Under the pieces are notes generated by a model, which was given only the letters and a program-made list of their open reading frames with translations, searched no databases and was not told the DNA's origin. Shown here one piece after another: positions 38,021 through 39,194 of a stretch of DNA of 64,000 bases. Every line of letters begins with the position of its first letter. The stretch's first letter is position 1. Location: sequence record OK040907; one strand, 5' to 3'. Position numbers and translations under genes: made by a program. The DNA is from Enterobacteria phage Ac3.

Positions 38021-38892
38021 TCAACACCGATACGACGCCACATCTCAACTACTTGAGTTCGGTCATCAATAGCTAATTTCACGTCAAAATGTGGTGCGAT
38101 GTGTTTCCAGAAAATTTCTTCTTTAACTACATCATCTTTACGGGTATCGCCTTGTTCGCGTTGACATTGCATAACTAATGGAACACCAGCAATGTCCTCA
38201 ACCCATTTACGGGTCATACGATAATATTTTGTTGGGTCTTCTTCGGTTCCACTTTCACGGCCCGAAACGACTACGATGTAATATCCTTGCTTATCGTACA
38301 TCTTAGCTAGTTCAACGACCATTGGATTAATAATATCGGTATCGCATTTTTCAAGGTCATAAGGACCACGACCATTCATTTTTGCTAATGTGCCATCAAC
38401 ATCAAAAATAACTGCTTTTGGTTTACCAGGAGTCCCATTATATACTGGAAGACCGAGATATTCCCGCATGCTTTTATACATTGAGCGTAAAACATCAATT
38501 GGTACTGCTTTAGTTCCACGTTTTGAGTTACGTTTAACTAATTCTGTCCAAGGAACATCAAACACTTTATATTCAATTTGATGCCCAAGCTCTTTGGCAA
38601 ACTCTTCCCAGACCTTACGTCGTTCAGGATTTAGATTAGTATCTGAAACAATTACACCCTTCGTTACGTCTTGGCATAGAATCATGTTAGCAACATCATG
38701 CTGCATGTAAGTTACGATGCCTTCTTTCTTTTTGGTATACTTGTACTCGTCACGTTCTTCATGACCCATGATGGATTGACGATAATCATCACGATTAATA
38801 TTATAAAATCCAGGATTTTTAGCAATAAATTCACGAGCCCAAGTACTCTTACCAGAACCAGGACAGCCAATAGTCAAAATAATCTTTTTCAT
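37990..38892 (-). CDS. pseT: Polynucleotide 5'-kinase/3'-phosphatase
   Basis: 300 aa; P-loop GCPGSGKST and phosphatase DxDGT motif (FDVDGT). Confidence 0.95.
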
Positions 38893-39194
38893 TATTTAAT
38901 ACCGAGGAACACTTCCAGGATACGGATGTTGTGTTCGCGACGGCCTTTATACAGTTCTGCGATGCTCTGGTTCGCGCTTTTAGACTGTACGTTGGAGCTG
39001 ATGAACTTGATCATGTGGTTCTTGAGCTGGTACATGTCCAGGCCACGCGCTTTTGCCTCTTTACGCAGCGCTTTACCAGCGTCATCCAGGGCTTTTGCAT
39101 GCTCAATGTCCTGGGAGATAGAGCTTACGTTTTCACGACAAACATCGATGTAGCGATCAGAGCACTCAATGTAACGCTCCAGGAGGGTTTTCAT
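38892..39194 (-). CDS. Hypothetical protein with GC3-rich codon usage
   Basis: 100 aa ORF; start overlaps upstream stop (ATGA) and stop overlaps pseT start (TAATG); ctg/gcg/cgt-rich. Confidence 0.55.

Follow-up and report, generated by a model that had tools for sequence, protein, structure and literature searches.

A GC3-rich ORF between pseT.1 and pseT is very probably an ordinary T-even accessory gene whose coding DNA, like that of four other genes, has been artificially recoded with E. coli codons

Two kinds of described systems come close to the locus studied here. Among recoded phages, the nearest reports are those on codon de-optimisation of the T7 capsid gene (PMC5592923) and on whole-genome recoding of PhiX174 (PMC7881332), which are drawn on here for the general design of these constructs. 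Among phage genes, the nearest is a hypothetical gene of T-even phages, which in RB51 is ORF222, annotated as 'RB32ORF217c hypothetical protein, similar to RB69ORF231c' (ACP31138.1); our literature search for RB32ORF217c, RB69ORF231c or phrog_2364 found no report. An earlier note had pointed to a 100-aa open reading frame (ORF) with host-like codon usage in the stretch of DNA analyzed here (64,000 nucleotides, hereafter the window), and had placed it in a region known for counter-defence functions, which would imply an unusual and possibly acquired gene. Our analysis leaves very little doubt that this ORF is an ordinary T-even accessory gene, the coding DNA of which has been artificially replaced by a synonymous back-translation into E. 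coli codons, and that four other genes in the window have been treated in the same way.

The window belongs to a T-even phage (Tequatrovirus). The ORF (38892..39194, minus strand) lies between pseT.1 (39191..39421, minus strand, 76 aa) and pseT, the gene for polynucleotide kinase/phosphatase (37990..38892, minus strand, 300 aa), and the gene order is alc, the spanin genes pseT.3 and pseT.2, pseT.1, the ORF and pseT. Its ATG start codon overlaps the stop codon of pseT.1 as ATGA at 39191-39194, and its stop codon overlaps the start codon of pseT as TAATG at 38892, the last base of the stop being the A of the pseT ATG, which confirms the seamless embedding described in the earlier note. Both neighbors consist of natural sequence, with 100% nucleotide identity to RB51, while the ORF between them is recoded synonymously from its start codon to its stop codon.

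In base composition, GC content is about 0.49-0.51 across the ORF, while it is 0.32-0.39 in the surroundings. The GC3 of the ORF is 0.60-0.61, more than seven standard deviations from the median of the window (median 0.25, robust standard deviation 0.047, 80 ORFs), and this composition is far outside chance fluctuation. Two long ORFs are also seen on the plus strand opposite the recoded ORF, at 38698-39153 (151 aa) and 38931-39218 (95 aa). These are by-products of the recoding and not genes, because GC3-rich recoding leaves few antisense stop codons and long antisense ORFs therefore appear. An Rfam search of the GC-rich stretch gave no match, and no direct or inverted repeats were seen in 38500-39600.

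Profile comparison placed the ORF protein in phrog_2364 (E = 4.5e-53, residues 1-100 aligned to positions 1-105 of 105), and the protein was found to be 100% identical to RB51 ACP31138.1 and to RB68_220 (AIT75680.1). Members of the same family are present between pseT.1 and pseT in T6, RB51, RB68, RB33, MLF4 and F1. A tblastn search with the ORF protein matched 708 phage records, a number that can be scaled against the 785 phage records with a PseT at least 60% identical. There is some diversity among the copies. The RB33 copy has 106 aa, with an insertion within the first loop, and the T2 copy (PV958097.1) has 82 aa and is N-terminally truncated, with a 66-nt gap before it. In Mosigvirus JS09 the gene is present together with one further small ORF ahead of pseT; this additional ORF, found upstream of pseT in JS09 and RB69, encodes 63 aa (RB69ORF230c). 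Dhakavirus VR5 carries a 54%-identical copy, and there the place of pseT.1 is taken by a different, longer gene. Between the spanin genes and pseT there is thus a small spot of plasticity, and the stretch from pseT.1 to pseT differs between genera. Matches in protein searches were confined to the phage family of the ORF; the few labelled Escherichia coli or Shigella came from contigs of about 168-171 kb, which corresponds to a T-even genome in size. A profile search across 1.84 billion protein representatives returned family members and four weak repetitive or coiled-coil proteins.

In T4 (NC_000866), pseT (134002-134907) abuts pseT.1 (134908-135135) and the ORF is absent, so the statement in the earlier note, that T4 has one small ORF between the spanin pair and pseT where the window has two, was correct. 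The T4 state corresponds to a clean 303-nt indel relative to the window (T4 134900-134915, window 38885-39200). ATGAAAA opens the ORF as well as pseT, and the T4 junction reads AAATAA followed directly by ATGAAAAAG; it can be derived by a deletion between the two 7-nt ATGAAAA repeats. The comparison that had been proposed with T4, T2, T6 and the RB genomes thus gave a gene that is missing from T4, truncated in T2, and present in T6, RB51, RB68 and RB33. Among T-even phages it is T4 that is the exception in lacking the ORF, and the gene is dispensable, since T4 does without it and T2 has only a truncated copy. The ORF is a known and widespread hypothetical gene of T-even phages, and its absence from T4 and truncation in T2 were already evident in existing annotations. 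The implied reading as an unusual, possibly acquired counter-defence gene is not upheld by its occurrence in the same place in the six phages named above, by the 708 matching records, or by the lack of any match in the E. coli genomes and plasmids searched.

The anomaly lies in the DNA of the gene. Compared with RB51 and RB68, the DNA of the ORF is 73.6% identical; 35 codons are unchanged and 66 are changed (65 sense codons and the stop codon, from TGA to TAA), and none of the changes is non-synonymous. Seven of them are serine switches between TCN and AGY. The earlier note had looked to the same ORF with the same nucleotide sequence at this position in reference T-even genomes as the mark of an ordinary conserved gene; the position is indeed shared, but the nucleotides differ, and they do so only synonymously. 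In natural homologues compared with RB51, the ratios of synonymous to non-synonymous changes are 3:2, 2:7, 7:14, 1:10, 31:31 and 30:46, and serine-box switches are absent. If the natural share of synonymous changes is taken as 0.5-0.7, a result of 65 synonymous changes in 65 differing sense codons has a probability of 1e-10 to 1e-20. The GC3 of natural family members is 0.23-0.26, rising to 0.42 in the GC-richer Dhakavirus.

The same signature was found in four other genes of the window, all on the minus strand: gene 24.3 (12654..12857; 45 synonymous and 0 non-synonymous changes, GC3 from 0.28 to 0.59), frd.1 (48945..49184; 44 and 0, GC3 from 0.29 to 0.54), frd.3 (49938..50168; 46 and 0, GC3 from 0.25 to 0.60) and gene 32, which encodes the ssDNA-binding protein (50315..51223; 169 and 0, GC3 from 0.29 to 0.62). 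Each of the five genes encodes a protein 100% identical to its RB51 counterpart, from DNA that is 74-79% identical. Taken together, the five genes contain 370 synonymous and 0 non-synonymous codon changes, for which the chance is below 1e-57, and GC3 has moved from 0.25-0.29 to 0.54-0.62. The blocks of difference (12655-12854, 38893-39186, 48946-49181, 49941-50157 and 50318-51218) match the CDS boundaries.

Codon choice in the five genes is restricted. Across their 629 codons, seventeen that E. coli uses rarely (TTA, TTG, CTT, CTA, ATA, AGA, AGG, CGA, CGG, GGA, GGG, TCA, TCG, AGT, CCT, CCC and ACA) do not appear at all, all five stop codons are TAA (in three cases in place of TGA), and 25 serine-box switches have occurred. 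In highly expressed E. coli genes the favored codons are CTG, CGT/CGC, GGT/GGC, ATC, AAC, TTC, TAC and TCT/TCC/AGC, and it is this set that is used in the recoded genes. Furthermore, 229 degenerate codons were left unchanged, in agreement with the 242 ± 10 expected if the new codons were drawn independently of the old ones, as back-translation from the protein would give. The E. coli-like codon usage reported in the earlier note is therefore real (GC3 of 0.60-0.61 against a median of 0.25), but a natural cause for it does not stand, given 370 synonymous and 0 non-synonymous changes across five genes.

Outside these genes the window is natural T-even DNA. Over the first 60.7 kb, about 98.9% of the sequence agrees with RB51 and RB68, which serve as the reference here as near-identical relatives rather than as the parent genome itself. 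The differences from the two phages are accounted for by five blocks that coincide with CDSs, by three single-base differences standing alone and by the tail-fibre genes, and pseT, pseT.1, gene 59 and gene 36 show 100% nucleotide identity to RB51. The remaining differences from RB51 in about 59 kb are a 1-nt indel at 18699, a substitution at 28799 (inside the coordinates of alt in RB51) and a non-synonymous change at 49699 in frd.2; in RB68 there is, in addition, a 7-nt indel near 10073. For the tail-fibre genes 37 and 38 (59310-63426), amino-acid identity to RB51 and RB68 is 76% and 54%, whereas a partial record of phage Ac3 (AF060870) matches them at 99.9%; their divergence is ordinary natural mosaicism of adhesins, and the match suggests that the backbone belongs to Ac3 or a very close relative.

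The recoding was carried through regardless of signals that overlap the recoded genes. Gene 24.2 overlaps the recoded 3' end of gene 24.3, and its start codon (12665..12667, minus strand) is thereby changed from ATG to ACG; together with altered residues 2-5, this turns its N-terminus from MEQYD into TALCN and leaves no start codon at the annotated position. Similarly, the natural Shine-Dalgarno site of pseT (38901..38904, minus strand) reads TTAGGAATTAAATGATG in RB51 and CTCGGTATTAAATAATG in the window, so that AGGA is removed. The junctions of the recoded genes are nevertheless seamless and their reading frames intact, and the junctions of the ORF are as in RB51. If the recoded DNA exists physically, the ORF protein would be unchanged, and gene 24.2 would be predicted to lose its start codon. 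Initiation of pseT translation would probably drop as well, because the Shine-Dalgarno site is lost while the 1-nt overlap of stop and start codons stays.

Searches of public sequence retrieved the protein but not the recoded DNA. No match was obtained by megablast with the 303 nt of the ORF against 50,697 phage records, because identity to the natural copies is only about 74%, and the best blastn match among phage records was 74.8%. Exact 26- to 38-mers of the recoded DNA gave zero matches in viral, genome and metagenome contigs, and blastn at a sensitivity for distant matches found nothing for the ORF in 5,426 complete E. coli genomes and 72,556 plasmids. Of five public contigs read for exactly the same protein, the two retrieved (RB68 and a Logan assembly of SRR1714821) contain natural AT-rich DNA, 100% identical to RB51. 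Gene 32 is normally among the best conserved genes of T-even phages, and the best match of its recoded version among public phages was 79.1%. A literature search for a recoded T-even phage found none.

Two natural explanations were considered for the recoded DNA. One is a recent horizontal transfer from E. coli or from a GC-richer donor into the interval between pseT.1 and pseT, in which the donor codons were kept and the product might serve counter-defence. The GC3 of the ORF (0.60, genome median 0.25), the absence of the ORF from T4 and the variability of the interval between genera would all fit such an event, yet the protein is identical to that of RB51 and RB68 and occupies the location where hundreds of T-even phages have AT-rich copies. 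A transferred gene is also hard to reconcile with the empty searches of E. coli genomes and plasmids, which included sensitive blastn, with a profile search that reached only the phage family and a few weak repetitive matches, with the lack of flanking repeats or insertion scars in 38500-39600, and with the same signature in four unrelated genes, the core gene 32 among them. We consider transfer extremely unlikely. Hardly any weight can likewise be given to natural selection for translational efficiency, which would have led this phage lineage to host-optimal codons. Gene 32 is highly expressed in T4, and its high expression speaks for selection, as does the fact that the codons used are the favorites of highly expressed E. 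coli genes; but selection would need 370 synonymous and 0 non-synonymous changes in five genes, with the DNA between them 100% identical to RB51, and 25 serine-box switches, each of which passes through a non-synonymous intermediate. The changes end exactly at the CDS ends and destroy two signals, the gene 24.2 start codon and the pseT Shine-Dalgarno site, the chance of 65 synonymous changes out of 65 is 1e-10 to 1e-20, and the major capsid gene (gene 23), whose expression is the highest in the window, has a GC3 of only 0.36. No measurement favored a natural origin of the recoded DNA.

The best explanation is therefore artificial recoding. A natural T-even backbone, near-identical to RB51 and RB68 and with Ac3-like tail-fibre genes, would have had five of its CDSs (the ORF, 24.3, frd.1, frd.3 and gene 32) back-translated with E. 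coli-preferred codons and the proteins kept, and the GC3-rich composition would be man-made, either as synthetic DNA or through editing of the sequence record. It follows that the host-like codon usage gives no evidence of transfer or adaptation. Given artificial recoding, an alteration made in silico seems to us the likelier route, and physical recoding the less likely but still appreciable one. A phage engineered physically, by recombining synthetic codon-optimised alleles into it (for instance so that it evades sequence-targeting tools or has its genes marked), would be more than an edited file. Such a phage is possible, since laboratories have an established practice of recoding phage genes synonymously (T7, PhiX174) and the junctions are seamless with intact reading frames. 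We nevertheless regard such a phage as doubtful. A T-even construct of this kind was found neither in the literature nor in public records, the set of 24.3, ORF217c, frd.1, frd.3 and 32 has no obvious rationale, a careful designer would spare the start codon of gene 24.2 and the ribosome-binding site of pseT, and CDS intervals were treated mechanically, with every stop forced to TAA. The artificial recoding looks like the work of an automated, annotation-driven script, because of this mechanical treatment of CDS intervals, the forced TAA stops, the lost start codon and ribosome-binding site, and the lack of an evident rationale in the choice of genes.

These results bear on quality control, as an anomaly that resembled a transfer from the host or the acquisition of a counter-defence gene is a known gene that has been rewritten synonymously. 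Non-natural sequence is present in at least five genes of the window, and findings based on composition for 24.3, frd.1, frd.3 and gene 32 share the same trivial cause. Analyses of codon usage, detection of horizontal gene transfer, RNA structure, prediction of promoters and ribosome-binding sites, and phylogeny at the DNA level would all be misled if they were based on this window.

Regarding the transcription context, a sigma-70-like early promoter was predicted upstream of alc (40593..40621, minus strand), which matches the consensus with TTTACA-17-TATAGT and TG. It is likely the start of a transcription unit of alc, pseT.3, pseT.2, pseT.1, the ORF and pseT, as judged from sequence, and no terminator-like site was seen between this promoter and pseT. 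An exact 54-bp direct repeat was also observed, with one copy at 25292-25345 (upstream of alt.-3) and the other at 40569-40622 (upstream of alc), both intergenic. The copy at 40569-40622 holds the sigma-70-like promoter TTTACA-17-TATAGT. The repeat is natural, because RB51 has it too, and probably represents an early promoter module that was duplicated.

The ORF protein, which is confined to T-even-type phages, is basic, with a mass of 11.5 kDa and a pI of 9.2. AlphaFold2, run with a family alignment of 23 sequences, predicted an up-down four-helix bundle with a mean pLDDT of 94.9. The predicted helices comprise residues 2-20, 26-49, 54-70 and 76-96, and the least confident part is the indel-prone loop between helices 1 and 2. 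The profile and structure-prediction searches suggested in the earlier note thus yielded a confident fold and no significant functional match. In Pfam, the GapR-like family PF10073 matched residues within the ORF protein below its gathering threshold (16.3 bits, cutoff 22.6, E = 0.0075), and coiled-coil matches were likewise sub-threshold; structural similarity to solved GapR was not found. HTH-type matches, also sub-threshold, all covered residues ~31-84 (2jn6, an IS-type HTH, E = 0.14; Z-alpha of PKR, E = 0.55), among them weak matches to repetitive HTH-like proteins from the profile search of 1.84 billion representatives (E from 6e-5 to 9e-4). The AlphaFold2 model has long bundle helices and no compact HTH. 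A sequence profile search of the PDB gave nothing with E below 0.1, and PADLOC, which covers defence proteins, returned an LmuA match only, at noise level (13 bits). Homology and fold searches for a function were empty or non-significant throughout.

Our best guess, drawn from size, charge, fold, context and distribution, is that the ORF encodes a small early accessory protein that would bind a macromolecule of the host or the phage. A weak, secondary possibility, suggested by the sequence matches, is that the HTH-like segment binds nucleic acid, and a counter-defence role is possible but unsupported. That phrog_2364 proteins are host-takeover or counter-defence factors, perhaps binding nucleic acid via residues ~40-66, is rather improbable in our estimate; if it is true, the presence or absence of the gene might explain differences in host range or in sensitivity to defence between T4 and T2, T6 or the RB phages.

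Alc, AsiA, Arn and Dmd are small non-essential early proteins of T4-type phages, which bind macromolecules of the host or the phage. The ORF protein is like them in its length of about 100 aa, in its place in an early-type overlapping operon beside alc and pseT, in its restriction to one group of phages and in its dispensability. This likeness is one of context only, and no relationship in sequence or fold links the ORF protein to any of the four. Much closer is the gene of RB51 and RB68 (T6 AXN58255.1 and RB69ORF231c belong to the same family), which has the same length, the same location between pseT.1 and pseT and the same overlapping architecture of start and stop codons as the ORF in the window. 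It is the DNA alone that differs, with 74% identity, synonymous changes throughout, and a GC3 of 0.25 in RB51 and RB68 against 0.60 in the window. As to the manner of the rewriting, the window resembles recoded T7 and PhiX174 and the output of gene-design programs, in that amino acids are kept, codons rare in the host are barred, stops are unified as TAA, serine boxes are swapped and the changes end at the CDS. However, recoded T7 and PhiX174 are documented, and were de-optimised or recoded for attenuation studies, whereas in the window five scattered genes have been optimised and neighboring signals damaged.
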